From: a virus
Lineage: Duplodnaviria; Caudoviricetes
Strand: one strand, 5' to 3'
Virus record (IMG/VR): IMGVR_UViG_3300031673_000058
Location: 1 to 55,168 of that record
Length of the DNA stretch: 55,168 nt
Part shown: positions 1 through 55,077 of the stretch, piece by piece
Numbering within the stretch: position 1 is the stretch's first letter
Layout: each line of letters starts with the position of its first letter
Notes under the pieces: model-generated
Database searches by the model: none
Seen by the model: only the letters and a program-made list of their open reading frames with translations
What the model was told of the DNA's origin: nothing
Position numbers and translations under genes: made by a program

Positions 1-27
1 TTACACGCCTTGATAATGGCGGTTAAT
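1..27 (+). repeat. Terminal direct repeat, copy 1 (copy 2 at 55140-55166)
   Basis: TTACACGCCTTGATAATGGCGGTTAAT identical at both ends. Confidence 0.95.
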
Positions 28-46
28 CTGACTTAACGGTAATTTC
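13..46. other. Arm-6bp-arm core of tripartite site 8 (third arm at 55086 across the circular junction)
   Basis: ATAATGGCGGTTAA-tctgac-TTAACGGTAATTTC. Confidence 0.8.
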
Positions 47-8840: not shown

Positions 8841-8940
8841 AGAAGGGCCGTTAAACGGCTTTAATGGACGTTTTGACGGTAGACAGTAGGCCGTAGACGG
8901 TAGATAGGTGGGAGTTAGGGCGTTGAAAAATGCCTGTTAA
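8841..8940. other. Tripartite site 1
   Basis: AGAAGGGCCGTTAA-acggct-TTAATGGACGTTTT ... AAAATGCCTGTTAA; 80-bp unit 8861-8940. Confidence 0.85.
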
Positions 8941-12315: not shown

Positions 12316-12387
12316 CACGGTAGACGGTAGATGGTAAACGGAAGACAGGGGCGGGGTCACCTGCCCCTGTTTATGCAGGAGGGCAAT

Positions 12388-17334: not shown

Positions 17335-17434
17335 TTAACGGGCGTTTTGTAGAGTGATTACGCGCGTATTCAATGGGCGAAACGCGGGGTATACGGTATA
17401 GAAATGACGGTTAAAGCGGATTAACAGAAACTAT
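17335..17434. other. Tripartite site 2
   Basis: TTAACGGGCGTTTT ... GAAATGACGGTTAA-agcgga-TTAACAGAAACTAT; 80-bp unit 17335-17414. Confidence 0.85.
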
Positions 17435-17882: not shown

Positions 17883-17896
17883 GAGAAATACACGAT

Positions 17897-20432: not shown

Positions 20433-20533
20433 TTAGCGGGCGTTTTTTCGGGCGTGTAGATGACAGCCGGTAGACGGAAAACGGGACTGTTTGGCGTAGG
20501 GAACGCCCGCTAATCGACATTAACGGACGATAA
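20433..20533. other. Tripartite site 3
   Basis: TTAGCGGGCGTTTT ... GGAACGCCCGCTAA-tcgaca-TTAACGGACGATAA; unit 20433-20513 (81 bp). Confidence 0.8.
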
Positions 20534-20614
20534 CCACGGATAGGAGAAATATCCGATGGGAGCGGAGCGCGCTATGAAAAGCGCGGCTACGGCCACGGGA
20601 AGGAGAAATACACG

Positions 20615-26193: not shown

Positions 26194-27783
26194 ATGGACA
26201 TTCAGCCGGAGTTTCAGACGCGCAACTTTCAGGACGCGCTCAATTTCCCCGACGTGATTTTCAGCGTGCAGAACTATAGCTGGCACGTGCTAGGCGGCCC
26301 ACGCCAGGCGACGGTGACGGCGTGGGGCAACGAGTATGCGATCTGGGATTTGCTGAACTGGCTGCGCGCGCCAGTCATACTGCGCGATAGTGAGGGCAGC
26401 GCGCGCTGGTGGGGGTATCTACACACGGTCGATATTCAGGTGGGCGCGATCCAGGTAGGCGTAAGCCTGGATAGTATGTACAACCGGATCAATGTGGTAT
26501 ACGGCTATCTAGCGCCAGGATCGGCCACGGCGGGCACGCGGGCCAATACCGGATGGGCGCAAGACGATGATGGTGTAAGCGCCTACGGGACGCGCGAACT
26601 CAAATACTCGCTCTCCGAGGCCAGCATCGAAAGTGCAGCGCAGACACGCGACACACTGCTGTCTGCGCTGCGGTATCCGAATCCAACGTTGTTGCCGAAT
26701 TATGGGCAGAGCGATCTGCGCGCCACGCTCACGCTGCACGGTTGGTGGGATACGCTGGATTGGCAGTATTACGCGCAGCCGGCGGGCATCGAGGAACACC
26801 AGGTGAAGGGTATCATCGTACAGGTGGGGACCAGCACGGTGGAGAGGCTGGCGCAGAAGTTCCAGTTGGGCAGCGCGGTAACGTGGGATAGCTATTCGTT
26901 GCACATCCGCGCGAAGGTGTTGGCGGGGACGCCGGGTGATAATTTGCAACTCTCCTTGTACAGTGATTCGGGCGGCGCGCCGGGGAGCCTGCTGTGCGGC
27001 GCGGCGGTAGGCGACACGATCGACGAGAACATCCAATGGGTTTCAGCAGTCCCCTCCACACGAGTCGCGTTAAGCCCGGGGACGACGTACTGGCTGCTGG
27101 TGGCGCGTACCGGCAGCTTGGACAACAGCCACTATTTCGGCGTGGGGGTGGACGAGACGGCAAGCTACGCGCGCGGGACGTTGTTCGCTTACGCGGGCGG
27201 GTCATGGAGCGAATACGATGGAGATCCGGGGACAAGCGGAGTGCAGCCGGTCGCATTGACGTTCCAGGTAACGGGCGTATGGGAGACCACGGCGCAGATC
27301 GAGGATATCGTAGACGATGAGGCGCAGTTTATGACGGCGTGCGAGATCGAAAACGCGAGCGGAATTTATGCGAATCCATACCGCGACGGGGATGGTCTAG
27401 CCGGAGTAGAGATTACCAAGTTGCTGACAGTGGGGACGACGGCGGGGCGGCGTTTGCTGGCAGAGGTGACGGAAGCGCGCGTGCTGCGCGTGTATCTGGA
27501 GCCAGAATGCAGCGAGAGCAACATCACATTGTACATGGACAACGCCGGTGTGCTGTATGGGAAGTGGAACGATATGCAGGCGTTGCGTGGGGATATATCG
27601 CCGGTGGGCCAGTGGTGCCAGTTGCGGGATTGGCCGAGTACGATCAATATGAATCTGTTGGCGGATCCGTCCATCTTCTTCATCGAGTACGCGGAGTTCG
27701 ACATGGGGCGCGAGGCGTGGGTGAATGTGACGCCGCGCGGCGCGCCGACGCCGTGGGAGTTGGCGCAGCTCATACAAGGGTAG
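26194..27783 (+). CDS. Tail tip/hub protein with an inserted beta domain
   Basis: YNRINVVY, SAYGTRE, LSPGTTYWLLV. Confidence 0.6.
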   Translation: MDIQPEFQTRNFQDALNFPDVIFSVQNYSWHVLGGPRQATVTAWGNEYAIWDLLNWLRAPVILRDSEGSARWWGYLHTVDIQVGAIQVGVSLDSMYNRINVVYGYLAPGSATAGTRANTGWAQDDDGVSAYGTRELKYSLSEASIESAAQTRDTLLSALRYPNPTLLPNYGQSDLRATLTLHGWWDTLDWQYYAQPAGIEEHQVKGIIVQVGTSTVERLAQKFQLGSAVTWDSYSLHIRAKVLAGTPGDNLQLSLYSDSGGAPGSLLCGAAVGDTIDENIQWVSAVPSTRVALSPGTTYWLLVARTGSLDNSHYFGVGVDETASYARGTLFAYAGGSWSEYDGDPGTSGVQPVALTFQVTGVWETTAQIEDIVDDEAQFMTACEIENASGIYANPYRDGDGLAGVEITKLLTVGTTAGRRLLAEVTEARVLRVYLEPECSESNITLYMDNAGVLYGKWNDMQALRGDISPVGQWCQLRDWPSTINMNLLADPSIFFIEYAEFDMGREAWVNVTPRGAPTPWELAQLIQG

Positions 27784-27815
27784 ACGATAGACGGTAGACG
27801 GGGGAAGAGTTCTGA

Positions 27816-27915
27816 TTAACTGGCGTTTTACGGGATGATTACGCGCGTATTCAGAGCAGGATTGGCGGAATGTTAGGATTAAAAAGGGCCGTTAAAGAGA
27901 GTTAGCAGACGTAGA
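27816..27915. other. Tripartite site 4
   Basis: TTAACTGGCGTTTT ... AAAAGGGCCGTTAA-agagag-TTAGCAGACGTAGA; 80-bp unit 27816-27895. Confidence 0.85.
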
Positions 27916-27959
27916 CAGTAGACATAGGCGGTAGACGGTAGACGGGAGAAGGGAACACG

Positions 27960-31871: not shown

Positions 31872-32246
31872 ATGGGACGAAAAATTGGCTTGTTGATTTT
31901 GCTGGCGGGATTGCTGATTGTTCCCGCAGTGTTCACCGGGGCGCAGGGGCAACGTGAGGAAGTGCTGGCGCTGGCGGGGAACACTGACGGTGACAGCGTC
32001 CTGGTAACGCTAGTCGGGGGAACCGGCGTGTGGGTGACGGAGATGCCGCACAACAGCGCCGCGAGCTACGACGCGCGTGACGCCGTCTGCGCTGTAGAGC
32101 AGGCGATGGTGACAGTGTGCGGGAGATACATCTACGTGGCGGTAAGTTGCGGGGATTGGCCGCCACAGACGTTTGTTTTTGAGACACGCATGACGTTTCC
32201 GTGCGCGCAGCCGACGACGGTATACATTCCAGTCGTGCAGAGGTAA
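31872..32246 (+). CDS. Small secreted protein
   Basis: Signal peptide; C-terminal VYIPVV. Confidence 0.6.
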   Translation: MGRKIGLLILLAGLLIVPAVFTGAQGQREEVLALAGNTDGDSVLVTLVGGTGVWVTEMPHNSAASYDARDAVCAVEQAMVTVCGRYIYVAVSCGDWPPQTFVFETRMTFPCAQPTTVYIPVVQR

Positions 32247-32310
32247 ACGGTAGACAGTAGACGGTAGACAGTAGACGGGAGACGGGAGACGGGAGAAAGA
32301 AGGAGAAAAT

Positions 32311-32690: not shown

Positions 32691-32790
32691 GAAATATCTG
32701 TTAATTGGTTTTAATAGACGTAAAAGCGCGGTAGACGGTAGGTGGTAGACGGTAGACGGGGGTTTTAGTGCGGTAGAAAACGCCTGTTAA
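32691..32790. other. Tripartite site 5 (additional arm at 32639)
   Basis: GAAATATCTGTTAA-ttggtt-TTAATAGACGTAAA ... AAAACGCCTGTTAA; 80-bp unit 32711-32790. Confidence 0.85.
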
Positions 32791-34254: not shown

Positions 34255-34378
34255 GTTGTTAGTCTGCCGCCAGTTTTAACGCCAGAAACGCGCCTTCGGA
34301 CTCCTCGGGTAGGACTCGAACCTACAACCAACCGGTTAACAATCCGAGCAGCCTGTAAATTGAGGGCAGACTAACAAC
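34255..34378 (-). other. attP: 3' half of tRNA-Asn(GTT) at 34301-34341 with flanking arm repeats
   Basis: Minus strand TGTTAACCGGTTGGTTGTAGGTTCGAGTCCTACCCGAGGAG (anticodon loop to acceptor stem); inverted GTTGTTAGTCTGCC / GGCAGACTAACAAC; next to the integrase 3' end. Confidence 0.88.
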
Positions 34379-34393: not shown

Positions 34394-35452
34394 TCACCTC
34401 TCCACCAGACGGAACAACTCCGCCGCCAGCGCGCGAATCCGCGCGTCGCCGCTCCCGCTGCCCCGCTGCCCCAGGGCAGCCATCCGCTCGGCCACCTGAT
34501 TGTGTAGCATCACCGAGTAGATCGCGTCCGTCGTCCCCATCTGTTCGTGCATGAGGTTCTGAGAGACCGCCTTAAAATCCTCCATCGTGTCGCAGAGGCT
34601 CAGCGCGTACACAGCAAACCCGTGGCGGAACTTATGCGGGCTGCGATACGGCAACCCGGCGCGTACACACAGCATCTCCAGGTGGCGCGCCAGATTCTGC
34701 ACCCTGGCCTGCCCCGGAGTTTGTTCTTCCGCGAACGCCTCACCGGTGCGATCCAGCAGGGCGTACCACGGGGCAGCGGGTTCGAGCGTCCGGCGCGCCA
34801 ACGTATCCCAGGCGCGCGCGACATCGAGCAGCGGCCCCACTTCGGCGGATTGCAAAAGGTACGTCGTCGCCGCCTTCCCGTTCTTCGTCCGCACGCCCAG
34901 GCTCGGCCACTGATGGACCTCGAAGCGTTCCAGATTCACCGCAGACAGCGGCAGAGTTACAAACGCCGTCGCGCGCATCCCGCTGAGGAACAACATGCAC
35001 GCCGCCGCGCGGTCCCGCTGCTCGGTAAGCGTTCGGGCCGGCGCCGTCGCCAGCGCCAGCGCATCGTCGAGAGTGTACAGTTCCCTCTCCGGCACGGCCT
35101 GCACGTGTTCGTTCACCGGGCGCAGCGTCGCCCAGAAGGAGCGCGGGGGATAAGCGTCGGGGTAGCGTTCCCGCGACCACTCAAAAAACGTCCGGCAGAT
35201 CTCCAACAGCTTCCCCTGGTATCCAGGCGACAGCGCACCCAGGTCGGCCAGATAGCGCGGGAACACCGGACGCAGGTCGGCAGCGCGGGCGAACGGCGTA
35301 TCCGTAGCCCAACGTAGGAGATGATCCACGGCGACGCGATACAGCGCCACCGATCCGGGCGCCGCGTGCAGCACCTCGCTCCGGTAAGTGAGATAAGCGC
35401 GGGTATCGCGCCAATTGCGGCGACTGATCAGTACGTCGGGATGGCGTTTCAT
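34394..35452 (-). CDS. int: Tyrosine integrase
   Basis: SGMR, RTKNGK, HKFRH, LMH, IY catalytic set; ATGA overlap with the upstream gene. Confidence 0.9.
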   Translation of the reverse strand: MKRHPDVLISRRNWRDTRAYLTYRSEVLHAAPGSVALYRVAVDHLLRWATDTPFARAADLRPVFPRYLADLGALSPGYQGKLLEICRTFFEWSRERYPDAYPPRSFWATLRPVNEHVQAVPERELYTLDDALALATAPARTLTEQRDRAAACMLFLSGMRATAFVTLPLSAVNLERFEVHQWPSLGVRTKNGKAATTYLLQSAEVGPLLDVARAWDTLARRTLEPAAPWYALLDRTGEAFAEEQTPGQARVQNLARHLEMLCVRAGLPYRSPHKFRHGFAVYALSLCDTMEDFKAVSQNLMHEQMGTTDAIYSVMLHNQVAERMAALGQRGSGSGDARIRALAAELFRLVER

Positions 35453-35835
35453 TCCGCCACCTCCCGGCGCAGCCGGTTCACTTTTGCGCCGCATACCGCG
35501 CACCGCCCGCGCACCAGCTCCACTCCCGGCGAGTTTGGCGCGCTGCTTGTCTCCACCATTTTTCGCGCGGATCGGCAGCGTAAACAATACGCCTCGTCGT
35601 TGGCGAGGGGAATTTTACGCACCGCCGGCGCTGCCCGGTACCACGCCGCGAAAGCCTCGCCCACCACGTAGAGCCGGTTAAGCTCTTTGCGATGTGGGCA
35701 GCCCGCCGCGACCGCGCACTCGACGACGCGCCGCGCGCAGCCGATCTCGGCGGCCAGCTCTGAGAGCGTGTATTCCATCCGCAGCAGGCGGCGCAACCGT
35801 TCCGTCTGGGGTTGTGACAAATGAATTGATGACAT
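35449..35835 (-). CDS. HTH plus zinc-ribbon protein
   Basis: YTLSELAAEIG; AYCLRCR...GRCAVCGAKV. Confidence 0.7.
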   Translation of the reverse strand: MSSIHLSQPQTERLRRLLRMEYTLSELAAEIGCARRVVECAVAAGCPHRKELNRLYVVGEAFAAWYRAAPAVRKIPLANDEAYCLRCRSARKMVETSSAPNSPGVELVRGRCAVCGAKVNRLRREVAE

Positions 35836-36442: not shown

Positions 36443-36458
36443 CCACGGATAGGAGAAA

Positions 36459-36695
36459 TTGACGATGGATGATTTTCTTAATGCTATGGGTACAAAGTCA
36501 AAAGACAAGCAGTTGAGACTGGTGCATATTTTGGAGACCGTGCTGAAATTGGTCGAATTGCCGGAGAAAGAGCTAGAGCGGCGCATGACTGCGTTGCGGA
36601 CAGCCATTATTGCCGACTACAACGAGATAGAGGATGAGGAGAATGGTAGGATGGTAGGAGATGGACAAGGTCGCCAATGTACGATTGTCGAATAG
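36459..36695 (+). CDS. Hypothetical protein
   Basis: RBS supplied by the linker repeat. Confidence 0.5.
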   Translation: MTMDDFLNAMGTKSKDKQLRLVHILETVLKLVELPEKELERRMTALRTAIIADYNEIEDEENGRMVGDGQGRQCTIVE

Positions 36696-38661: not shown

Positions 38662-38711
38662 CCACGGAGATAACCACGGATGGAAGAAATGGGCGATAGG
38701 GAGGCGCAGAG

Positions 38712-38933
38712 ATGATGCAGTTGAAAATCGTCCCTGAAGATCGGCACATGATTATCTCTGAGGCTACCGAGGTACGGGTGCTGTTCGATCGCGAAGTGGT
38801 TGAGGTATGGAGCCCCCGCGCCGGATTGTGGGCGTGCGTTGGGGTTCCATACGAGGAATTGCGTTCGTTCATTGCGGCGCTGAAGAGCGCGCAATGTCTG
38901 TTAGAGGAGCAACGGGAGAAATATGAAAACTGA
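38712..38933 (+). CDS. Hypothetical protein
   Basis: RBS GGAGG; operon packing. Confidence 0.5.
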   Translation: MMQLKIVPEDRHMIISEATEVRVLFDREVVEVWSPRAGLWACVGVPYEELRSFIAALKSAQCLLEEQREKYEN

Positions 38934-40986
38934 ATCGATTGCACTGTGGAACATTCGACCCTCACGCTGGCAGCCGCGCGAGCCGCAATTCGATGCCGAG
39001 TCTCTGACCGAACTCGCGCAGAGCATCCACGAGCATGGCCTCATTCATGCGATCCTCGTCTTTGGCTGTCCCGACGAGGACGGGTACACTGTTTGGGAGT
39101 TGATCGCCGGAGAGAGACGCGCGCGCGCCACCATCGCCCTGGAACTGGCAGAGTTATTCCCGCAGCACACGCTGGCGGAGTGGTGCACCAGGCTTGCCAA
39201 TGTGGGGCTGGCCGGGCTAGGGGAGGAGGAGCGCGCAGCGCTGAAGACGGCGCAGGCCACCATCCCCGCGCAGGTCTATCCCGCCGGCGATCTGAAGGTG
39301 CTACACCTCCTCGCCGTCATCGAGAATCTGGACCGCGCCGATCTCTCACCTATCGAGGAAGCGCGGGCTTACAAGGGATTGCTGGATGAGTACGGCTGGT
39401 CCCAGCGCGAACTGGCGGCGCACGTCAACAAATCCCAGGGCTACATCGCGCAGCGCCTGGCGATCCTGGGGCTGCCCCAGAGCGCGCAGGAGGCCGTGAG
39501 TACGCGCGTACTCAGTTTCTCGCACGCGCGGGCGCTGGCCGCCGTACCGGAGGCGCTTCAGGAAAGCATGACTGCCTGGACAGTGGCGGCGGTGCAGCAG
39601 GATAACAATCCGCTCACGTCGCGCCAGGTGGAGAACCGTCTGCGACAGGTCGCAGCCTTCGTCGATCCGGCGCGCTGGGAACCCAACGGAGAGACAATCT
39701 ACACGCCCGAACAGCGCAACCGGTTGCGCGTGATTCGCGGGATTTTGCAAAGCGAGGGCGATGATATTGCCAAACGCACCGACGCCATCCTGCTGCTGGC
39801 CGAGTCTGGCTATTCTAAAACCAATCTCCTGAATGTTAGACCGATTGAAGTGGTCAGTGATCGAGTCCACACATCCATGGTTATTGCGGCCCTATCCGGT
39901 AGTGAGCTCGACGAAGACAAGCGCATTGAAACTGCCGGCATGCTGTGCCATAACTGCGTGTGGGTGCAGGCTTGGGGTGAACTCTCGGCATATCCAAACC
40001 TTCCAATACCGTGCGCCAGGATCGAGCATCCAACCGCGCGCGCGTGCTCGAATTACATCGGCCCGGTTGATCCGGTCGTGATCCCCCTGTATTCGTGGGA
40101 CCTGCGGCGCGAGGCCGAAAGAATTGAGGGCGTGACGCTGATCACGGAACCCTTCCTCCACTTAACGAGCGTAGAGGAGTTCATCACGCTCTACCGGCAC
40201 ACGGCCACGTTCAGGATGAATCAGGACGACACACACGAACAGGCTGTGGCGCGCAAGCACATCGAGAAAATTCGCGAGTATTACGAATGGCAGCGAGATC
40301 TGCCGGATGCGTGGCGCGCGCACTTCCAGGCGCACGCTTGCGAGAAGTGCGTCCACTACGCGCCGTCGCTCATAGAGCAAGGGGATCCGCCCTGCGCTCT
40401 GGTCGTCAATCCGCTGGAAAAACGCGAGTATGGCAAGATGACCTACTGCGCGCCAGAGTTCGGTTGCCTGGTGCAATCCACTGGCCAACTCGCGCCGCGC
40501 TGCGAAGCGTTCGCCTACCGCGAGTTGCCGGGTTTCGCTTTCCCGGAGTATATGCTGATCAATCTCCCGGCGCGCAGTCGCGTTTTGGCCTGGTTGGAGG
40601 CCATCGCCGGGCAGGCCAAGAGCAACTACACGAATCATGTGCTCTGGGGTAGTTTCTCGTGGCTCAACTACGGTCGCACAATGGGGCACACTGCCGTGGA
40701 TTGGCCGGCGTTCAAAAAATGGCTCGGCGCGCATTGGGACGAACTCGGCGACGCGGCGGTCGCGCACCTCATCGATGTGGCCGTGAGTGAGCTGGAGCTT
40801 TTCCGGCACGTCGATACCGAGTTCGCGCTGCTCAACGCGACCGATACTCAGCCTGAGATATGGCGACGGCTCACATTCCCGTTTTCGTACTATCAAGAGC
40901 ACACTTACAGCATACCGCCTCATTGGCCGGAGGATTGGCCGAAACCGTGGGAGGGAGAATCACGGATAAGAGAAATGAATGATTAA
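38923..40986 (+). CDS. ParB/Spo0J-family protein with a long Cys-rich C-terminal extension
   Basis: QPR, LAQSIHEHGLI, LIAGERR, IENLDRADLSPIEEA, HTH WSQRELAAHVNKSQGYI. Confidence 0.88.
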   Translation: MKTESIALWNIRPSRWQPREPQFDAESLTELAQSIHEHGLIHAILVFGCPDEDGYTVWELIAGERRARATIALELAELFPQHTLAEWCTRLANVGLAGLGEEERAALKTAQATIPAQVYPAGDLKVLHLLAVIENLDRADLSPIEEARAYKGLLDEYGWSQRELAAHVNKSQGYIAQRLAILGLPQSAQEAVSTRVLSFSHARALAAVPEALQESMTAWTVAAVQQDNNPLTSRQVENRLRQVAAFVDPARWEPNGETIYTPEQRNRLRVIRGILQSEGDDIAKRTDAILLLAESGYSKTNLLNVRPIEVVSDRVHTSMVIAALSGSELDEDKRIETAGMLCHNCVWVQAWGELSAYPNLPIPCARIEHPTARACSNYIGPVDPVVIPLYSWDLRREAERIEGVTLITEPFLHLTSVEEFITLYRHTATFRMNQDDTHEQAVARKHIEKIREYYEWQRDLPDAWRAHFQAHACEKCVHYAPSLIEQGDPPCALVVNPLEKREYGKMTYCAPEFGCLVQSTGQLAPRCEAFAYRELPGFAFPEYMLINLPARSRVLAWLEAIAGQAKSNYTNHVLWGSFSWLNYGRTMGHTAVDWPAFKKWLGAHWDELGDAAVAHLIDVAVSELELFRHVDTEFALLNATDTQPEIWRRLTFPFSYYQEHTYSIPPHWPEDWPKPWEGESRIREMND

Positions 40987-41000
40987 GGAGATGAAGAACG

Positions 41001-41180
41001 ATGATAGACACACGTTGTCCAAATTGCAATGTAGATATTGAACAACAGCTCAAAGAGCAAGTTCTCGATGGTGCAGGATTGTACTTCGAGTACGAATGTG
41101 CGTGCGGGGAAATTCTCGATGTTGAGGTTGAAATGTATATCGAGTTCGACATCAGACAAAAGCCCATTAAGGGCGTTTAA
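41001..41180 (+). CDS. Small zinc-ribbon protein (59 aa)
   Basis: Manually translated: RCPNC...YFEYECACGEILDVEVE. Confidence 0.6.
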   Translation: MIDTRCPNCNVDIEQQLKEQVLDGAGLYFEYECACGEILDVEVEMYIEFDIRQKPIKGV

Positions 41181-41256
41181 CAGGCGTTTTGTAAAGAAAA
41201 TCTTTACATTGCAGTCGTAAATCTATAGATTAAGAATCTCTAAAAATGACCGTTAA
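41157..41256. other. Tripartite site 6
   Basis: CAAAAGCCCATTAA-gggcgt-TTAACAGGCGTTTT ... AAAATGACCGTTAA; 80-bp unit 41177-41256. Confidence 0.85.
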
Positions 41257-41266: not shown

Positions 41267-41539
41267 ATGATGGCACAAGGAAAATTTACCAAACAGGAAG
41301 CAGCGGAAACAAGAAAGGCCGTTCAGGAAATGTGGGAAGCCCTCACGAAGGCCAAGCGAATGGAATATTTCGGGAATCTCAACGACATTTTTCTTTTTCT
41401 GGATGCTGCTGAATTTATCGCCCCAGATGAGAATGCGGGTAGCACTCTCCTATCAGAAGTATCGTTTGATCCCACTGAAGACGATTTGCCTTCTCTCACC
41501 ACAGCGGAACGGGAGAAAATTCTAAAGGAGGCAGCATGA
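41267..41539 (+). CDS. Hypothetical protein
   Basis: RBS AGGAGG; ATGA overlap with parA. Confidence 0.55.
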   Translation: MMAQGKFTKQEAAETRKAVQEMWEALTKAKRMEYFGNLNDIFLFLDAAEFIAPDENAGSTLLSEVSFDPTEDDLPSLTTAEREKILKEAA

Positions 41540-42300
41540 GCGTAAAGGTGATCGCTATCGCATCGCAGAAGGGAGGGGTGGGCAAGACGACCACGGTGGT
41601 CAATGCGGCCCACGGTCTGGCCCTCAAAGGCAAGGAAGTGCTCGTCATCGATTTCGATCCGCAGGGGCAGGTGAGTGTGGCCCTGGGGATGAAGCAGGAC
41701 GATTGTGTTTTCGATGTGTGCATCGGCGGCAGTGAGGTCGCGCAGGCGCTCCGCGCGACAGATCGGCAGCGCCTGTGGGCCATCCCTGGCTATAAGCGCA
41801 CGGCGACGGCGCAGACGGTGCTGCTGGCCGAAGGCGAGGATATTCTGGTTACGGCGAAGAATCGCTTTGTCAAGCCCTTTAACGGGCGGCCCGATTTCAT
41901 CGTGTTCGATACCGCGCCCTCCGTGGGCGGTTTGCAGGAAGCGGCGATGTTCGCTGCCGACCTGGTGATCGTTCCCGCTGCGACGGACTATCTCGCGCTG
42001 TTCGGCGTGACCGGGGTGCTGCAAACGCTGGACGCGCTGCGCAAGCGGGGTTGGAAAGGGCATGTGATCGTTCTGCCGACGTTCTTCGACGAGATCACCA
42101 AACACAGCAAGACGCAGTTGGCGCTGCTCACGGGGCGCATCAGCGCGATGGGTGTGGAGGTGCTGCCGGCGATCCACAGGGCGACGGAACAGCGTGAGGC
42201 TACGTCGGAGGGGAAGACGATCTTCGAGTATGCGCCTACCAGCCGCACAGCGCAGGAATATGCGGCGCTGGTCTGGAAAATCCTGGGGGTGCTCAAATGA
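41536..42300 (+). CDS. parA: ParA/Soj ATPase
   Basis: QKGGVGKTT, DFDPQG, DTAP. Confidence 0.93.
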   Translation: MSVKVIAIASQKGGVGKTTTVVNAAHGLALKGKEVLVIDFDPQGQVSVALGMKQDDCVFDVCIGGSEVAQALRATDRQRLWAIPGYKRTATAQTVLLAEGEDILVTAKNRFVKPFNGRPDFIVFDTAPSVGGLQEAAMFAADLVIVPAATDYLALFGVTGVLQTLDALRKRGWKGHVIVLPTFFDEITKHSKTQLALLTGRISAMGVEVLPAIHRATEQREATSEGKTIFEYAPTSRTAQEYAALVWKILGVLK

Positions 42301-45590: not shown

Positions 45591-46116
45591 TACAGGATTA
45601 CAGATGCTTTTTGGCACGCCGGTCGCACTGGCAGATGATACCCCTGCTCGTCAGTCGTTGGTCAGTCGTCCGTTGGTCAGTCAGAGAGGGGGTGACGAAC
45701 GACTGACGAACGAAAGTGGGGTGGGGGGCCTCGCGGGCCTGTCTGCGGCGCACGTGGCGGCGGTGCTGCCGGCGTTGGTCGCGGGGATCGTGCAGCGCCC
45801 GGTCGTCTCGATCTCGCTGGTCGAGCAGTATGGGCGGGTCATGATAGCGCGCGTTGTGCCCTATGCGCAGGTTGATCCGGTGCTGCCGCTGGTCATGGGG
45901 CTACGGTCGCCTGGCTATTTGTACTGGTATCGCCGGTACTGGTCGGCGCTGATGCTGTTATTGGGCGGGTTCCCCACAGCGCTGCGGCGCGTCGAGCGGA
46001 TGAAGCGCCGTCTGCTGATGCAGTTATTCGGCCTGGGGTTGGAGGCGCGCGAGATCGCGTATTTCCAGACGTGGCTGGAGCATGGGAGCCTGGGGGATTA
46101 CACGTTAGGAGAGTAG
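45577..46116 (+). CDS. Hypothetical protein
   Basis: RBS AAGGAG; internal GTCAGTCG repeats. Confidence 0.5.
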   Translation: MMMLDTGLQMLFGTPVALADDTPARQSLVSRPLVSQRGGDERLTNESGVGGLAGLSAAHVAAVLPALVAGIVQRPVVSISLVEQYGRVMIARVVPYAQVDPVLPLVMGLRSPGYLYWYRRYWSALMLLLGGFPTALRRVERMKRRLLMQLFGLGLEAREIAYFQTWLEHGSLGDYTLGE

Positions 46117-46118
46117 CC

Positions 46119-47018
46119 ATGACGCTCGCGATTACAACGCCGCAACAACTTTGGACTACGGCTCTCGGAGAGCTCGAACTACAGATGACGCGGGCGACGT
46201 TCGACACGTGGCTGCGGGACACGCAGTGCATCGGGCGCGACGAAGACAATACGCTCGTCATCACCGTGAAGAATGGCTACGCGGTGGAGTGGCTGGAGAA
46301 CCGGCTCTATCCGGTCATCGAGCGCACCTTGCAGCGCGTGACCGGGAACGGGACGCTGGCACGGTTTGTGATCAACGAACCAAAGCGCGCCAGGCCCACC
46401 GTTACCCTACCAGACATTCCGGCTACCTACGATCTCGTCGCAGAACTGGCCGACGTGCTGCGGAATGTGATTGACCCCGCAACCCGCAAGCTCCTCCAGG
46501 AGCGCATCGCCGCCATTCAGGGGGTGCCTGAGCCAGAGCCACCCACCCCACCCGTAGACTTCGACACTTACGGCAAAGCCGGCGGCGGCTGGTATCCCAT
46601 CAGCAATTACGCGGATGCTTTCTGGAAGCCTTTGCTGCGCGAGCGCAAAGCCTTCCTGACCTACACCACCATCCGCGCGCTGGACAAAAACGCGGCCAGC
46701 AGCGAGTGGACGCAGATGAAACACGTGCCGATCCGCGAGATTATGCAGCGTGTGCCGTGCTCGCGCAATACAATCTTGGGAGAAATGCGCGGTGGAGTCT
46801 ACCGGTCTGGCGCGCTCGATATGCTGCGAGAGGCCGGTCTGGCGCGGCTCGAGGTGCATGGCGACGACAAACACACGACGTATCACGTTTCAGTCGTGAC
46901 AAAACTGCCGCTGCTGACAGCGGTACAGGCACAACAGCTTTCCGACGAGTTACAGGCTCAGCACCGGGCTTTCCTGGTGCAGCACAGCATCGATCCGACG
47001 CCCTGGGAACCAGATTAA
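46119..47018 (+). CDS. Replication initiator-like protein with a DnaA N-terminal domain
   Basis: LWTTALGELELQMTRATFDTWLRDT...NGYAVEWLENRL; C-terminal wHTH-like region. Confidence 0.75.
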   Translation: MTLAITTPQQLWTTALGELELQMTRATFDTWLRDTQCIGRDEDNTLVITVKNGYAVEWLENRLYPVIERTLQRVTGNGTLARFVINEPKRARPTVTLPDIPATYDLVAELADVLRNVIDPATRKLLQERIAAIQGVPEPEPPTPPVDFDTYGKAGGGWYPISNYADAFWKPLLRERKAFLTYTTIRALDKNAASSEWTQMKHVPIREIMQRVPCSRNTILGEMRGGVYRSGALDMLREAGLARLEVHGDDKHTTYHVSVVTKLPLLTAVQAQQLSDELQAQHRAFLVQHSIDPTPWEPD

Positions 47019-47028: not shown

Positions 47029-47300
47029 GTTTGATGTCAAAATTGACATCAGCTGATGTCAATTTTGACATCAAACACAGGAACGAACCCCGGAACAAGG
47101 TCTTGTTCCGGGGCTTTTTTTGCCTACGGTTTTGTGAATTTTTCCGGGATACGCATTTACCGATGTCACTTTCCCGCAGAAATACTTAACCGTGATGTCA
47201 AAATTGACATCACGGTTAAGTATTTACATTAACGGCAGGGGGGGAAGAAGAAAAATAAAGAAAAATTAAAAAACAAAGAGATTCTATCCTTTCTTAAAAG
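47029..47300. other. Putative replication origin: long palindromes plus A-rich tract
   Basis: Perfect 48-bp palindrome 47029-47076; 46-bp palindrome 47180-47225; three GATGTCAAAATTGACATC units. Confidence 0.6.
47087..47121 (+). terminator. Intrinsic terminator
   Basis: CCCCGGAACAAG-gt-CTTGTTCCGGGG followed by a T-run. Confidence 0.8.
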
Positions 47301-48233: not shown

Positions 48234-48262
48234 TTGACAACGCGGGGAATATCCGCTATAAT
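48234..48262 (+). promoter_or_regulatory. Consensus sigma70 promoter of the recombinase operon
   Basis: TTGACA-17-TATAAT, followed by ATGTTC-atattg-GAACGT. Confidence 0.85.
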
Positions 48263-48274
48263 GTTCATATTGGA

Positions 48275-48374
48275 ACGTTGGCCGCTAACGGGCATTAACA
48301 GACGATAAGCGGGTGGGAAGTGGTCGAAAAGTCGGCTTTGAGGATGTTTAAGATCGTTATAAAACGTCAGTTAA
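48275..48374. other. Tripartite site 7
   Basis: ACGTTGGCCGCTAA-cgggca-TTAACAGACGATAA ... AAAACGTCAGTTAA; 80-bp unit 48295-48374. Confidence 0.85.
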
Positions 48375-48399
48375 ATGGTTTAGAAAGAAGGAATAGACG

Positions 48400-48861
48400 A
48401 TGGCGCATAAGGATTGGGATCGTGAGCGGGATTTTGTGATGGGCGTGGCGCTCGACCTGGTGATGGTGCGCGGGTATGAGGTAGAGGGTGTGGCGGAGTC
48501 TATGACGCGCTTGTACTATCGCGGGATCTCGCCGGAACGCGCGCAACGCAGTTTTTCCAGAGACCTTCACGCGCTGGTGAATACGCAGAAGCGGCTCGTG
48601 TTTGAGCGGGAATCGCGGGTGTTGGTGACGATGGCGCACGCGCTGCAAGCCGAGGGCTGGCGCTGGCTGACGATGTCCGACCGACCTGGGGGGTTTTTCT
48701 GGCACGATCAGTACGGGTCGGTGAACAATATGGGCGGTGGGTTTGGGTCGTGGGATGAGGCGGTGCGGCGCACTTTCAATTCAGAGATCCGTGCGCTGAC
48801 ACAACATCGCCGGGGGACTGACCCGCTCCCACTCTCGGCGGAGTCAGAGGGCGTCCAATGA
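48400..48861 (+). CDS. Hypothetical protein upstream of the recombinase
   Basis: RBS AAGGA; first gene after the promoter. Confidence 0.65.
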   Translation: MAHKDWDRERDFVMGVALDLVMVRGYEVEGVAESMTRLYYRGISPERAQRSFSRDLHALVNTQKRLVFERESRVLVTMAHALQAEGWRWLTMSDRPGGFFWHDQYGSVNNMGGGFGSWDEAVRRTFNSEIRALTQHRRGTDPLPLSAESEGVQ

Positions 48862-48924
48862 AATGCCCCGGTGTTCGTAGCACCGGGGCGGGCGTCCAAC
48901 ATTTCACTTGAAAGGGGTAAAAGG

Positions 48925-49914
48925 ATGGACAATTTCATTGTAACAGAAACGGCAGTGGAAAGCAAGACCCAAACCCTCGTGGTCTCCACATACGACGAGG
49001 CCTTCGAGCAATGGCTGTTAGAGAAGGATCGCTCTGAGCGAACGGCGCGCTTATATATGACCGGGTTGCGGGATTTCCGCGAGTGGTTCGAGCGCAAGAC
49101 CGGAGATATGTTGAATCCGGCAATGGTGACACCGCTGGACGTGCGCTCGTATCGCCGGTATCTGACCGATGACCGTAAACTGAAAGCACGGTCGATCAAC
49201 AGCTACCTCGCCGCCGTGCGTGCGTTCTGCCGGTGGGCGATGGATAAGGGGCTGGCGATGGGCGACCCTTCCAGCGGCATCAAGGGGATCGAGATTGAGG
49301 AGCAATCACCGCGCTGGTTGAGCAAGCAGGAGCAGTACGCTCTGCTGCGGGCGGCTCAGAAGGAGGTCCAGATCGGCGATCTGCGCGCCGGCGGCGATAA
49401 GGCGGCGCCCGGGTACGTGTGGCCGCGCCGGGATCGCGCGATTGTGGTGCTGATGCTGAACACGGGCTTACGGCTCTCTGAGGTGGCGGCGCTGGATATG
49501 GACGACGTGATGATCCGCCCGCGCTCCGGGCAGGTGACGGTGCGGATGGGCAAGGGACGCAAGACACGCATGGTGCGGCTGAATGCGGATGTGCGCGAGG
49601 CGCTGGACGAGTGGATCGCCACGCGCCCGGAGACGGATGATGCGGCGCTGTTCCTTTCGCAGAAGGGCAAGGCGCGGCTGACCGCGCGGGCGATCGCGCG
49701 GCGCGTGGCGGAGGTCGGGACGCAGGCGCAGTTAAGTGTGTCGCCGCACATGCTGCGCCATAGCCTGGCGAAGAATATGGTGGACGAGGGAATCTCGCTC
49801 GACCAGGTGGGGATGGCCCTGGGGCACAAGAGTTTGGATACGACGAAGCGGTATACCATGCCGTCGGTTGCGGATATGCAGATCGCTATGGAGCGGGTGG
49901 CGTGGAGGGATTGA
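48925..49914 (+). CDS. XerC/D-like tyrosine recombinase
   Basis: SAM-like N-terminal domain; TGLRLSE, GKGRKTR, HMLRH, LGH, TKRY. Confidence 0.93.
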   Translation: MDNFIVTETAVESKTQTLVVSTYDEAFEQWLLEKDRSERTARLYMTGLRDFREWFERKTGDMLNPAMVTPLDVRSYRRYLTDDRKLKARSINSYLAAVRAFCRWAMDKGLAMGDPSSGIKGIEIEEQSPRWLSKQEQYALLRAAQKEVQIGDLRAGGDKAAPGYVWPRRDRAIVVLMLNTGLRLSEVAALDMDDVMIRPRSGQVTVRMGKGRKTRMVRLNADVREALDEWIATRPETDDAALFLSQKGKARLTARAIARRVAEVGTQAQLSVSPHMLRHSLAKNMVDEGISLDQVGMALGHKSLDTTKRYTMPSVADMQIAMERVAWRD

Positions 49915-50081
49915 GGCGCAAGCCTAAAACACAGAGACAATGGGGAGTGAGAGTACCCGCAATAACAAAGTGGCGCCGGTGTTTGTGGAGCAGAAGGCGC
50001 TGCGGGTGATTTGATTGTGGCGCGTAGAATGAGGAGAAATTCGTGTTCTGCGCGCCTTTTTGTGCTGTTAATATGTGTTAA

Positions 50082-50133
50082 TTGGCATTATCCTGGCGCG
50101 GGTGTAGAATCACGGATATAGAACATCTGTTCG
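50082..50133 (+). promoter_or_regulatory. Promoter with LexA box
   Basis: TTGGCA-17-TAGAAT, then AGAAC-ATCT-GTTCG (50120-50133). Confidence 0.75.
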
Positions 50134-50616: not shown

Positions 50617-50710
50617 TGTGAGGGGGGAGCACTACGGATAGGAGAAATACACGATAGGAGAGCGCCGGATTATGATCTGGCGCGAGCATCTTAAAATTGG
50701 GGAAAAACTG

Positions 50711-50754
50711 GTGATAACTCGTGATTGACATCCCGTGTGATCCTGTGAGAGAGT
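50711..50754 (+). promoter_or_regulatory. Repeated promoter element, copy 2 of 4
   Basis: GTGATAACTCGTGATTGACA-N13-TGTGAGAGAGT. Confidence 0.8.
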
Positions 50755-50785
50755 GAGGGCATCTTACTTGAAAGGGGATACGGAA

Positions 50786-52345: not shown

Positions 52346-53242
52346 ATGGGGATGACGGGGATTCAGGATGTGGCGGTGGTCCGGATCGTGCCGGGCGACA
52401 ATGACCGGGAAGAATTCGAGCCGGTGGCGTTGCGCGAGTTGGTCGACAGTATTGCGCAGCACGGGCTAGCGCAGCCGATCACGGTGCGGCTCTACGGGGC
52501 GGGGTATCAGATTGTGGCCGGGGAACGGCGCTGGCGGGCGGCGCTGCTCCTGGGATGGGAGACGATCCCGGCGCTGGTGCGCGAGTTAGATGACGAAGCA
52601 GCCAGCGCGATTATGCTCTTGGAGAACATCCAGCGGGCGGAGTTGAACCCCATCGAGGAGGCGCGCGCCTATCGCAAACGGATGACACAGTTTGGATGGG
52701 ATGCTGACACAACGGCGCGCGCGGCCAACGTGCCGGTGGAACGGGTGCGGCTGCGGTTGATGTTGCTGGACGTGGTGCCGGAAGCGCAGCAGCTCATCCG
52801 CGACGGGCAGTTGGGGGTGAAGTACGCCTACGTGATGCGCGATCTGGACGCGAACCGGCAGAGACTGGCGTTGCGCTATCTGAGCCTGGTGGACACGCCG
52901 CGCCTGCGGGAGTTCCGCGAGTTGTGCGCACGATTGTTGGCGGAGCAGGCCCAGGAAGCGATGTTCGATATGGCGGCGTTTATGACCGGGGTGCAAGTCA
53001 CGCGCGCCCAGGAAGCCACGAGCCGCCTGGAGCGAGTGATCCCGGTGGACGCCGATCTGCCCGGCGTGCGCAAGGCGCGCTCAGCGGGACAGGCATTGGA
53101 GCGCTACATCCGCGATCTGCTGGACGGGGGGTTGGACGACGCGGCGCGGGTGGTGGGGACGGTGTACCAGGGGTTGCTGGCGCACGGGTTGGTGAAACTG
53201 CCGGGTGGACCTAGTCCGCTCATCCCCGGTGAGACGCTATGA
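52346..53242 (+). CDS. ParB/Spo0J-family protein
   Basis: SIAQHGLAQPITVR, IVAGERRWRA, LENIQRAELNPIEEA. Confidence 0.9.
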   Translation: MGMTGIQDVAVVRIVPGDNDREEFEPVALRELVDSIAQHGLAQPITVRLYGAGYQIVAGERRWRAALLLGWETIPALVRELDDEAASAIMLLENIQRAELNPIEEARAYRKRMTQFGWDADTTARAANVPVERVRLRLMLLDVVPEAQQLIRDGQLGVKYAYVMRDLDANRQRLALRYLSLVDTPRLREFRELCARLLAEQAQEAMFDMAAFMTGVQVTRAQEATSRLERVIPVDADLPGVRKARSAGQALERYIRDLLDGGLDDAARVVGTVYQGLLAHGLVKLPGGPSPLIPGETL

Positions 53243-53302
53243 ATACGCGCGTAATCAGGGGGGGAGAACCACGGATAAGAGAAATACACGATGGGAAAAC
53301 TG

Positions 53303-53346
53303 GTGATAATTCGTGATTGACAACCGGTGTGCTTTTGTGAGAGAGT
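53303..53346 (+). promoter_or_regulatory. Repeated promoter element, copy 3 of 4
   Basis: GTGATAATTCGTGATTGACA-N13-TGTGAGAGAGT. Confidence 0.8.
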
Positions 53347-53398
53347 AGGTGCAATTCAGCGCGTTATGGAAAACGCGACTACTTTTAGGAGGTTGGTT

Positions 53399-53669: not shown

Positions 53670-54227
53670 ATGAGCGATTTGAAAGCGTTTACGTTGACGG
53701 TGGCAGAGCATCTGCCGGGATGGGAGTTCGATGCGGCGTATTGGGAGGAATACCAGCACGTGGCGCGCCTGGTGAATCCGGGGATTCCTGGGGCGAAGGT
53801 TTATATGCAGTGCTCGCGAGGGCGCGCGGAGATTTCGGGCGGTTACCCGGAGGGGTTTCACCCGAGTTCTGAACAGCGTGTGACGATCACGGTCAACATG
53901 GAACGCGACGTGGCAGCCGTTGCCAGGGACATTGAGCGCCGGTTCTTAGGGCTGTATCTGGACAGCTTCTACGCGGCAGTAGAAGCTGCGTACCGGATGG
54001 TGCAAGCGCAGGCCCGCGCGCGGGACGTGGCCGATGAGTTGGCGGCGATCATGGGGTGCAGCGCCCGGCACGACCGGGAGACTTCGTCAATTTGGTCTAA
54101 TCACGGGACGTTCAGGATTACATGTGGATCGGATGGCCCGTACATTTCAGTAGAACGGTTGTACAGCATTTCTATAGAGATGGCGAAGGAGATCGCACGG
54201 ATATTTGCACGGAGTAACCACGGATAG
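53670..54227 (+). CDS. Hypothetical protein
   Basis: ACTTGAAAGGGG RBS motif; AVARDIERRFL. Confidence 0.65.
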   Translation: MSDLKAFTLTVAEHLPGWEFDAAYWEEYQHVARLVNPGIPGAKVYMQCSRGRAEISGGYPEGFHPSSEQRVTITVNMERDVAAVARDIERRFLGLYLDSFYAAVEAAYRMVQAQARARDVADELAAIMGCSARHDRETSSIWSNHGTFRITCGSDGPYISVERLYSISIEMAKEIARIFARSNHG

Positions 54228-54258
54228 GAGAAATGGACGATGGGAAGCGCGGTTACGG

Positions 54259-54287: not shown

Positions 54288-54310
54288 TGGTCAAAATTGG
54301 TGAAAAATTG

Positions 54311-54354
54311 GCGATAACTCGTGATTGACAATCCGTGATTGCCTGTGCGAGAGT
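54311..54354 (+). promoter_or_regulatory. Repeated promoter element, copy 4 of 4
   Basis: GCGATAACTCGTGATTGACA-N13-TGTGCGAGAGT. Confidence 0.8.
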
Positions 54355-54384
54355 GAGCGCATCTTACTTGAAAGGGGATTGGAA

Positions 54385-55077
54385 ATGGACGCTCATTACA
54401 GGATTGCGGATTTACCAGAACGGGAACGACCGGTGAACCGGCTGCGGGAAGCGGGGCCGCTGGCCGTGAGTAATGCGGAGTTGCTGGCGTGTATTTTGCA
54501 GACCGGCGACGCGCTGCACCAGGCTAATGCGTTACTGGCAGAGTTGGGCGGGTTGGAAGGTTTGGCGCGCGCGGAGCAGTGCATGTTCACGGAGGTGCAG
54601 GGCATCGGCCAGGCGCTGGCTACCAGGTTGCAGGCTGCGATTGAGTTTGGGCGGCGGATTGCGGCGGGGGCCGTAGAGGAACGGGTGCAGATCCGCGCGC
54701 CCCAGGACGCGGCTAGACTGGCCGCGCCATTGATCGAGCACCAGGAGCAGGAGCACTTCCTGGTGCTCTTCCTGGACACGCGCAACCGGGTGATCGATCA
54801 CGAGGTGTTGTACAAGGGGACATTGAACACGTCGTTGGTGCGCGTGGCGGAGGTATTCCGTGGGGCGATCCGGCGACACTGCGCGGCGATCATCGTGGCG
54901 CACAATCATCCTTCGGGGGATCCGGAACCGTCGCCAGAAGACATTACTCTCACGCGGCGGTTAATAGAAGCCGGGCAGTTGATGGAGGTCGATATGCTGG
55001 ATCATCTGATTATCGGGCGGGGACGGCATATCAGTCTGCGGGAGCGCGGCGCGGGATTTGAGAATGCGCGCGTGTAG
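54385..55077 (+). CDS. radC: RadC/JAB domain protein
   Basis: ERP..RL...SNAELLA, HhH, QEHF, AHNHPSGDPEPSPED, LDHLII. Confidence 0.95.
   Translation: MDAHYRIADLPERERPVNRLREAGPLAVSNAELLACILQTGDALHQANALLAELGGLEGLARAEQCMFTEVQGIGQALATRLQAAIEFGRRIAAGAVEERVQIRAPQDAARLAAPLIEHQEQEHFLVLFLDTRNRVIDHEVLYKGTLNTSLVRVAEVFRGAIRRHCAAIIVAHNHPSGDPEPSPEDITLTRRLIEAGQLMEVDMLDHLIIGRGRHISLRERGAGFENARV

Follow-up and report, generated by a model that had tools for sequence, protein, structure and literature searches.

The phage genome analysed here encodes, besides an integrase, a second tyrosine recombinase that is probably a Xer-like enzyme with its own DNA site in the leader of its gene. Through this leader site (site 7) the enzyme would regulate its own expression and resolve genome multimers, and it would also occupy an array of related sites spread over the genome, a combination which sequence comparison moderately favours. 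All positions refer to the window, i.e. the whole stretch of 55,168 nucleotides that was analysed; it derives from a phage of Anaerolineae bacteria.

The recombinase locus starts with a sigma-70-type promoter on the plus strand (48234..48262) whose hexamers, TTGACA (-35; 48234-48239) and TATAAT (-10; 48257-48262), are 17 nt apart and agree with the consensus at 12 of 12 positions, as the original prediction had claimed. A scan of the entire window with up to two mismatches allowed yielded only three such sites (positions 47, 48234 and 50082), and homologous promoters precede the recombinase gene in the five closest relatives (L163, L164, L165, L083 and L003). The promoter at 48234 is followed, in this order, by a three-part site (48278-48374), an ORF of 153 amino acids, a GC-rich hairpin and the recombinase gene (48925-49914). 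Directly 3' of the -10 hexamer lies an inverted repeat, GTTC-N6-GAAC (48263..48276, plus strand), which could possibly form a 5'-terminal mRNA hairpin or serve as an operator; the corresponding position in relatives also holds a palindrome, with other stems and other loop sizes. The hairpin between the two ORFs (48865..48889, plus strand; 9-bp stem, 7-nt loop, no T-run) has a folding energy of -22.7 kcal/mol (z -3.1), and its position, not its stem sequence, is kept in all ten relatives that were folded. Both ORFs do lie behind the promoter, as in the two-gene operon proposed earlier, but with this hairpin between them their co-transcription is not assured. Downstream of the recombinase gene, a 24-codon remnant of a small ORF was found (49940..50014, plus strand), of which only the C-terminal part can be aligned in the window; the full version of about 50 aa overlaps the recombinase stop codon in L163, L164, L165 and L083. 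Further downstream on the plus strand, the segment 50105..50372 comprises a -10 element (TAGAAT) and an inverted repeat (AGAAC-N4-GTTCG, 50120-50133), followed by a small ORF that starts at 50139 or 50151, encodes about 73-77 aa and is also present 3' of the recombinase gene in L163 and L003. No tRNA was detected in the window with ARAGORN.

The recombinase (48925..49914, plus strand, ATG start) comprises 329 aa and matches the catalytic domain PF00589 (E 1.1e-33) as well as the N-terminal, SAM-like core-binding domain of Xer type (PF02899, E 1.4e-11; PF13495, E 2.2e-8). The catalytic residues R183, K210, H275, R278, H301 and Y310 are invariant in an alignment of 36 sequences, in line with the earlier description of a second intact enzyme. 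Judged from its sequence, the protein is thus a member of the tyrosine recombinase superfamily with a complete catalytic set and Xer-like domain order, and it looks active. It was rejected as an equivalog of XerC or XerD, as both scores (182.2 and 155.9 bits) are below the curated NCBIfam cutoffs (335.15 and 329.6, respectively); the scores for XerA (164 bits, cutoff 220) and XerS (NF003462; 94.8 bits, cutoff 267) are also too low. A conserved extension of about 25 aa at the N-terminus is common to both phage subclades and a gap in all 17 other homologues compared. A search for specificity-determining residues common to both phage subclades yielded only three alignment columns in which they differ from the other sequences. 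The recombinases of the related records G026 and G014 are only 50% and 47% identical to that of the window and fall into another subclade in a quick tree, the sole phylogeny computed. Distant homologues (34-54% identity) occur in Anaerolineae DNA, with several paralogues per MAG.

As stated in the original prediction, a separate integrase is encoded elsewhere (34394-35587, minus strand; PF00589, E 9.5e-7), and the repeats next to it differ from the arms of the recombinase site. Neighbours of the recombinase gene include an initiator with a DnaA_N domain, large perfect palindromes, ParA and two ParB proteins.

Site 7 lies between the promoter and the first start codon, where it had been placed before. 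Its 28-bp core (48278..48305, plus strand; PWM score 30.0) consists of the 11-bp arm TTGGCCGCTAA, the 6-bp spacer CGGGCA and the 11-bp inverted arm TTAACAGACGA. The distal part (48346..48374, plus strand) contains a GTTTAAG box, an A-tract and, behind the latter, a third arm copy with CAGTTAA (48362-48374) that is located exactly 86 bp downstream of the first arm. Measured from the start of the core the distal copy is at offset 90, a value shared by 12 of the 14 elements compared. In the window nine cores score at least 24.8, the next best position reaching 12.6. A search with the core pattern gave 16 strand-matches where 0.76 were expected, a number attained in none of 100 shuffles. All nine cores lie in the gaps between the 66 listed genes, whose coverage of the window is 89.7%, and five of the cores have a distal copy at offset 90. 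Apart from site 7, full three-part sites are present at 8844..8940 (plus strand; TAGACGG heptads between core and distal copy), 27816..27912 (minus strand, with the distal copy on the other side at offset 90 and heptads following on the plus strand), 32694..32790 (plus strand; with heptads, at the end of a long plus-strand gene block) and 41160..41256 (plus strand; the distal copy borders directly on the ribosome-binding site of the first ORF in the ParA operon). The remaining cores, all on the plus strand, are found at 16..43, 4 nt upstream of the -35 hexamer of the perfect promoter 47-74; at 17404..17431, ending 2 nt ahead of the ATG at 17433; at 20503..20530; and at 50061..50088, where the core overlaps with the -35 hexamer (50082-50087) of the promoter that follows. 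The two sites 17404..17431 and 20503..20530 consist of the core only.

That site 7 belongs to the recombinase is suggested by the leaders of homologous genes. The leaders of L163 and L003 contain a core homologous to site 7 and that of G015 a degenerate one; a distal copy at offset 90-92 is present in all five closest relatives. When 241 related loci (2.89 Mb) were searched, window-type cores scoring at least 20 were confined to five loci, namely those with the closest recombinases. In leaders of distant homologues the geometry of core plus distal copy is kept while the arm sequences differ, with an arm-to-copy distance of 86-89 bp (L097/L178/L099/L100, L188, L012, L206, L167/L086/L087 and L172). 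A strict signature of this geometry was detected in 9 of 159 leaders, compared with none of 3180 shuffles and none of 650 positional controls; additional matches were recognised by eye. Of 14 such homologue loci, 11 have a single core, which lies in the leader, and none has two. Within about 4 kb of the site in 15 loci, including that of the window, the recombinase is the only gene family common to all; the remaining large clusters consist of antisense shadows of its gene, and there is no transposase among the shared families. Pfam scans of selected window ORFs, nearest neighbours included, did not reveal a transposase family either. The site is thus located directly upstream of the recombinase gene and inherited together with it. 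Given the constant geometry, the single-copy core and the recombinase as sole conserved neighbour, comparison of these loci makes site 7 most likely the enzyme's own site. Against this stand the genes of L164, L165 and L083 (three of seven in the window subclade), whose leaders have no clear site, as well as G026 and G014, which share the arms of the window despite their distant recombinases.

Two components of the original prediction did not hold up. The first is the proposed role of the 153-aa protein (48400..48861, plus strand) as accessory factor of the recombinase. Its ORF is a lineage-specific insertion in the leader: no homologue was found in the 241 related loci, and in the five closest relatives the leader joins the recombinase gene without it. 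The ORF has a GC3 of 0.73, similar to that of neighbouring genes. It is a real gene, as a search of 1.84 billion representatives revealed 43 relatives at E <= 1e-3; the alignment of this family is too variable for pattern scanning. Neither Pfam nor NCBIfam contains a matching family, and the single, weak PHROG hit (phrog_18047, E 4.4e-4) has no assigned function there. The structure model (pLDDT 92.8) gave no PDB match at E <= 0.001 in a fold search and no usable feature match in the Atlas (TM < 0.5), and no close relatives were found in viral contigs. A truncated copy in G004 adjoins another recombinase, behind a different small ORF, and the giant protein P0157 has a similar stretch that is absent from the L168 locus. 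Neither viral contigs, fold search and Atlas nor the G004 copy and P0157 provided a link to the recombinase, and the comparison of loci indicates that an unrelated gene, the 153-aa ORF, was inserted here.

The second concerns the TAGACGG heptads, whose triplets had been taken as part of the recombinase site and expected to co-occur with the enzyme. Site 7 has no heptads. Four phage records (G001, G002, G004 and G005) carry heptads, but neither cores nor a recombinase of more than 30% identity, and are thus, taken literally, relatives that keep the triplets and lack the enzyme; G003, cut at its ends, is an ambiguous case. In turn, heptad pairs are missing from G015, G026 and G014, whose arrays comprise 7-9 cores. 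Because heptads occur without cores or recombinase and arrays without heptads, the heptads appear as an element separate from the recombinase site.

In the mechanism we propose, the inverted arms of the core (11-6-11) would be occupied by two recombinase subunits and the third arm copy, at a distance of about eight helical turns, by a further one. The resulting complex would be looped or wrapped and comparable to the core-plus-accessory sites of resolution systems. As site 7 lies between a strong promoter and the coding region, its occupancy would lower expression of the recombinase, and autoregulation is therefore plausible from the layout. The catalytic task at site 7 may be the resolution of genome multimers, as in a plasmid maintenance backbone; this is the likeliest task in view of the neighbouring replication and partition genes and the separate integrase with its own attP. 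An argument against it is that one site is needed and nine are present. The other eight cores, four of them in full sites, agree with site 7 in arms and spacing, so the same protein is the best candidate for their occupant. To this extent the idea of the recombinase as enzyme of the array stands: on comparative grounds it ranks first among the candidates for binding site 7 and the array. All nine spacers differ, which makes complete exchange between different members of the array unlikely; the latter more probably are binding sites at promoters and operon starts, or independent resolution sites. The spacer of the related record G032 also differs from that of the window. Two of three spacers at orthologous sites are identical between the window and G009, which is uninformative because the two phages are about 80% identical in protein overall.

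It is tentatively conceivable that the phage family has turned its recombinase into a genome-wide organiser by multiplying the enzyme's own site to 7-9 copies, placed at operon starts and promoters. In one version the protein would act as master repressor or insulator, a recombinase-based stoperator system over the gene blocks of the phage. In the other, sites with private spacers would be orthogonal crossover points at which co-resident phages swap whole modules site-specifically.

We think it unlikely that the cores are operators of another phage protein, such as an unrecognised repressor or a ParB-like global regulator, with the recombinase operon as one target. This explanation would fit the presence of cores ahead of, on or behind the sigma-70-type promoters, three in number, in the window, and two proteins of the ParB/Spo0J family pass the TIGR00180 cutoff. 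It would also fit G003 (40.9 kb), whose eight cores (six with distal copy, at offset 90-92 in five and at 112 in the sixth) speak against the recombinase as array enzyme since only recombinases of at most 28% identity are encoded; this record is incomplete on both sides, and a tyrosine recombinase gene is broken off at its left end. Further, G026 and G014 have nine and seven cores, respectively, of the window arm type but no leader site, while homologues as distant as their recombinases in other Anaerolineae or metagenome contigs have different arms. On the other hand, the recombinase clade is present in four (G015, G026, G014 and G032) of the five core-bearing records of at least 23 kb besides the window, and no candidate binder common to all array-bearing records was found at E < 1e-8. 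Another binder would leave unexplained why the leader geometry recurs in other contexts with different arms and no other conserved neighbour. A separate family of 14-bp palindromes is present, which we infer to be at least as good a candidate for the ParB site as the cores.

It is quite improbable that only site 7 functions, in recombination or autoregulation, and that the other copies are passive, MITE-like repeats of about 105 bp derived from the leader. Such an origin would agree with the restriction of arrays to the phage family of the window, outside of which the core is single-copy, with the fixed length, conserved ends and free interior of the elements, with the one inverted copy and with site positions that vary between related records. 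Yet each of five diverged records (the window, G003, G015, G026 and G014) has retained 7-9 copies, and those of the window are outside genes, at promoters or directly before ribosome-binding sites. The maintained copy number and this placement argue for selection. An action of the element as RNA, by attenuator-like alternate pairing of the third copy with the second arm in transcribed intergenic regions, is very improbable and was set aside, since the arms, inverted repeats though they are, are conserved in their letters and do not covary in the arrays of the window and G003; moreover, pairing in site 7 is poor, exact DNA spacing is kept across unrelated interiors, and no Rfam family was matched in the window.

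The preferred reading, a Xer-like recombinase with its own leader site, was compared with known systems. The tyrosine recombinase TnpI acts on IRS, described in PMC2847244 as a core of two inverted motifs with cleavages 6 bp apart plus adjacent direct-repeat copies (DR1, DR2) that serve as accessory sites, no other protein being needed. The phage site likewise appears to combine a core with 6-bp spacer, a direct arm copy and possibly a second accessory box within about 100 bp. In contrast to TnpI/IRS, the phage recombinase is not accompanied by a Tn3-family transposase, the accessory copy is 86 bp away across a free interior and reaches into the region where translation of the downstream gene starts, and the site, whose binding is putative, is multiplied 7-9 times per genome. 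In streptococci and lactococci a single Xer-type recombinase, XerS, is inherited as a module with difSL immediately upstream, and autoregulation of xerS through binding is a speculation of the authors of PMC1914069. The phage site shares this upstream position and co-inheritance, whereas the phage enzyme scores far below the XerS cutoff, its site has an accessory copy, its gene resides in a phage and its relatives include several paralogues per MAG. P1 Cre acts in dimer resolution. Cre/loxP, compared as a recombinase-site module in PMC1914069, resembles the present case in its layout: a phage-borne tyrosine recombinase, a site beside its gene and partition genes ParA/ParB in the genome. The window phage differs in also having an integrase with attP, and in a site that includes an accessory part and occurs many times. 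Stoperators of cluster A mycobacteriophages are, according to PMC9283540, asymmetric, 13 bp long and the target of a monomeric HTH repressor; they are located in promoters and many short intergenic spaces and oriented with transcription. The phage cores are intergenic, three of them at promoters; they differ in being 28 bp long and near-palindromic with a distal copy, in the inverted orientation of one of five full sites, the other four being oriented with the genes, and in a candidate binder that is a catalytically intact recombinase. An integron was rejected because the IntI scores (TIGR02249, 60.2 bits, cutoff 265; NF011946, 31.1, cutoff 435) are below the cutoffs, because the extra segment of the recombinase clade precedes the first catalytic arginine, and because the sites are scattered between operons across all 55 kb, to the left and right of the recombinase gene, unlike an arrangement of one site per cassette on one side of an integrase gene.

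To our knowledge, there is almost no experimental phage biology for Anaerolineae hosts. If the recombinase binds these sites, it would represent a subfamily of Xer-like enzymes that has not been described from Chloroflexota so far. A core of dif size, combined with an accessory arm copy at a fixed distance of eight turns, overlapping the enzyme's own translation start, would be a compact, host-factor-free design of use for studies of recombination mechanism and for tool building. The spread of a recombinase's cognate site through a phage genome, unreported in the literature searched, would link site-specific recombination to global control of phage genes or to modular genome exchange, and it would provide a testable regulatory grammar for phages of Anaerolineae.

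The repeated unit in the window is a 28-bp pseudo-palindrome in which a 6-bp spacer separates an 11-bp arm that ends in TAA from an inverted arm starting with TTA. On a matrix derived from the nine window copies themselves, these cores scored at least 24.8 (next best window position, 12.6), and a degenerate core pattern gave 16 strand-matches versus 0.76 expected by chance. All nine cores are entirely intergenic, with genes making up 89.7% of the window, and their 6-bp spacers are all different. Five are followed, behind an A-tract, by a third arm copy whose offset relative to the core start is exactly 90, an arm-to-copy distance of 86 bp. These full three-part elements are found at 8844, 32694, 41160 and 48278 on the plus side and at 27885 on the minus side; the one at 48278-48374 is the leader site of the original prediction, and its presence was confirmed. 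What lies between core and distal copy varies: the elements at 8844 and 32694 have TAGACGG heptads there, the leader site has unrelated sequence, and some copies of the phage record G003 have a different palindrome. Only three σ70-type sites with at most two mismatches occur in 55 kb, including the one at 48234-48262, which has the full consensus as predicted. Each of the three strong promoters is touched by a core, which ends 4 nt 5' of the -35 hexamer at 47, lies 15 nt 3' of the -10 hexamer at 48262 or overlaps the -35 hexamer at 50082.

The recombinase gene is likewise intact, extending from an ATG at 48925 to 49914 and encoding 329 amino acids with a Xer-type N-terminal domain, a catalytic domain and all catalytic residues. 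The protein scores below the curated cutoffs for XerC, XerD, XerA, XerS and integron integrases; membership in XerC, XerD, XerS or IntI was rejected on this score criterion. The separate integrase is present (34394-35587, minus strand; PF00589, E 9.5e-7) with its own adjoining repeat set. Between the integrase-side repeats, 34290-34345 resembles by eye the 3' part of a minus-strand tRNA gene, which would suit an attP that targets a tRNA gene; no tRNA was called in the window by ARAGORN. L166, a related phage fragment, has three tyrosine recombinase genes inside 7 kb: an integrase-like gene (5876-6877, minus), the recombinase homologue (9983-11008, plus) and, two genes downstream, a 440-aa recombinase (11623-12945, plus).

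The comparison covered 241 loci encoding recombinase homologues (2.89 Mb). Window-type cores scoring at least 20 were confined to the five loci with the closest recombinases (L163, L003, L164, L165 and L083; 62-76% identity), all of them fragments of related phages; L164, L165 and L083 have no clear leader core. Leaders of distant homologues (34-54% identity), carried by MAG contigs of other Anaerolineae and by metagenome contigs, display the same three-part geometry with different arm sequences. A core-anchored distal copy at equal offset was found in L097, L178, L099, L100, L188, L012, L206, L167, L172, L087 and L086, and in several distant leaders this copy spans the first recombinase codons, the A-tract being the spacer before the start codon. 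A strict signature (inverted 8-mers ending in AA/TT, 6-nt spacer, direct copy 80-98 nt further on behind AAAA) was present in 9 of 159 leaders versus none of 3180 shuffled leaders and none of 650 segments taken elsewhere in these loci; since it misses imperfect cases, the window included, nine is a lower bound. Eleven of 14 such loci have exactly one core, in the leader; two of the others have none by the criterion used, the third has a single weak match elsewhere, and none has two. The recombinase is the sole gene family common to all 15 neighbourhoods (about 4 kb around the site). Given the constant architecture, the lineage-varying arms and the recombinase as sole constant companion, the three-part leader element is most simply interpreted as the recombinase's own site.

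A search of IMG/VR for the core plus distal copy yielded 33 stretches in 25 records; the recombinase was sought in 23 of these 25, and cores were scanned in 12 rebuilt records and the window. The recombinase clade is present in the window (55.2 kb, nine cores; 100% identity) and in G015 (43.1 kb, seven cores; 65%), G026 (58.9 kb, nine cores; 50%), G014 (72.0 kb, seven cores; 47%) and G032 (23.6 kb, three cores; 67%). It is absent from G003 (40.9 kb, eight cores), whose recombinases reach at most 28% identity. The left end of this incomplete record truncates a tyrosine recombinase ORF and the right end stops at a start codon, so that the recombinase may lie outside it. Shorter fragments with structural genes only (G009, G011, G031, G018 and G021; two to three cores each) are uninformative. 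G017 and G013 matched the pattern by chance and contain no cores. Judged from these genomes, the array is a trait of the window's phage family.

In a quick tree of the recombinases the window subclade (seven rows) had strong support (SH-aLRT 99), and G026 and G014 fell into another group, within an unresolved 29-row clade that also holds homologues of other arm sequences. The recombinase genes of G026 and G014 have no leader site and each follows another gene. The split in the tree and the leaders of G026, G014, L164, L165 and L083 argue against a simple link between array and recombinase. An N-terminal extension of about 25 aa, which is a gap in 17 of 17 others, and a GC hairpin 5' of the ribosome-binding site (in all 10 folded) are common to both phage recombinase groups and hint that they form one lineage.

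Two elements of the original prediction did not hold. The 153-aa ORF at 48400-48861, proposed to encode a recombinase partner, does belong to a real gene family and is separated from the recombinase ORF by a GC hairpin without a T-run. However, none of the 241 loci contains a homologue, and the leaders of L163 and L164 lack it: between promoter and hairpin, that of L163 is otherwise collinear with the leader in the window, and in L164 a DnaA_N gene and a zinc-ribbon gene are followed directly by the recombinase. A confident model of the 153-aa protein (pLDDT 92.8) matched none of the solved folds. The TAGACGG heptads, read as part of the recombinase site, occur independently of cores. G001, G002, G004 and G005 contain heptad runs but neither cores nor a recombinase exceeding 30% identity; G015, G026 and G014 have arrays and no heptad pairs. 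The phage records with such runs and without cores look unrelated. In the window, runs of three to six copies (1020-1049, 8873-8905, 12321-12350, 20457-20486, 27781-27810, 27912-27954, 32244-32301 and 32732-32761) are exclusively intergenic and on the plus strand (30 pattern matches versus 2.2 expected). Since the period is 7, three copies suffice to bring a TAG stop into every frame; the spaced UAG repeat could also be the site of an RNA-binding protein.

In L163, L164, L165 and L083 the recombinase stop is overlapped by a conserved small ORF (about 50 aa), of which only a 24-codon remnant is left in the window. Just 3' of their -10 hexamers, the promoters at 47 and 50082 have the inverted repeats AGAAC-N4-GTTCT (76-89) and AGAAC-N4-GTTCG (50120-50133), respectively, and L163 and L165 have the same box after the homologous promoter. 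These repeats resemble the Gram-positive-type LexA box, which suggests SOS control of another small ORF, the one of about 73-77 aa that follows the promoter at 50082, after the recombinase.

The window spans an entire IMG/VR virus record of 55,168 bp, with genes on the plus strand almost throughout, and relatives of its proteins are found on contigs of Anaerolineae and other Chloroflexota MAGs. In L003, a homologue of 54325-55077 is followed by a homologue of 329-1069; the right end of the window thus runs into its left end. Replication and partition genes encode a DnaA_N-domain protein (46071-47018), ParA (41536-42300) and two ParB/Spo0J-family proteins (38923-40986 and 52346-53242; TIGR00180, 111.7 and 122.4 bits, cutoff 58.45). 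An Amidoligase_2 gene and, after it, a class-I glutamine amidotransferase/peptidase C26 gene (50753-52309) lie between the recombinase module and ParB, and the pair is kept in G014. Directly 3' of the DnaA_N-domain gene, perfect palindromes at 47029-47076 (24+24 nt, no gap) and 47180-47225 (22+22 nt, 2-nt gap) with the common word TGATGTCAA/TTGACATCA form a putative replication origin; two arm-like CGGTTAAG words in the second palindrome face outward. A 14-bp palindrome family, ATTACGCGCGTAAT and variants (17355-17385, 27830-27861, 53234-53265), is intergenic, often about 50 nt before a core, and recurs in L164, L165 and L083 after the small ORF and within two G003 elements; it may be the site of the two ParB-family proteins. 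An 87-nt repeat with GTGATTGACA and TGTGAGAGAGTGAGGG is present in four copies (2012-2098, 50693-50779, 53285-53371, 54293-54379), each just 5' of a gene (2054, the amidoligase gene at 50753, 53327 and the RadC-like gene at 54325), and probably represents a second class of promoter. A motif of about 26 nt, CCACGGATAGGAGAAAT..ACGATGG (17873-17898, 20534-20559, 20593-20618, 36443-36468, 38671-38703, 40949-40983, 50632-50657, 53269-53294, 54218-54243), recurs at least seven times, on the plus strand only and chiefly at gene starts. It looks like a start-associated element that brings its own ribosome-binding site; some copies have no real ORF after them.

A limited literature search found no description of this recombinase family or of phage recombinase-site arrays. 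The closest site design is TnpI/IRS of Tn4430, with a core plus accessory direct repeats of one motif and a 6-bp stagger (PMC2847244). The gene-plus-site module is like XerS/difSL, for which autoregulation was likewise proposed (PMC1914069), the 28-bp core has the length given for dif (PMC3025954), and the spread of sites over the genome is like that of stoperators (PMC9283540).

Comparison establishes the architecture of the site, its linkage to the recombinase gene and its multiplication in the phage family. The features described in the original prediction are all present. Their reading, which rests wholly on comparative inference, is partly supported; the 153-aa partner and the heptads drop out of it. 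The recombinase would bind both core arms and the distal copy, and binding between promoter and gene would reduce its own synthesis. The leader site may serve to resolve genome multimers, in view of its replication and partition neighbours and of the presence of a separate integrase. The remaining cores would be occupied by the same protein. Because tyrosine recombination requires matching overlap regions and the nine spacers all differ, complete strand exchange is expected to be disfavoured between different copies. At promoters and operon starts the other cores may act in regulation or insulation; alternatively, they may be independent resolution sites.
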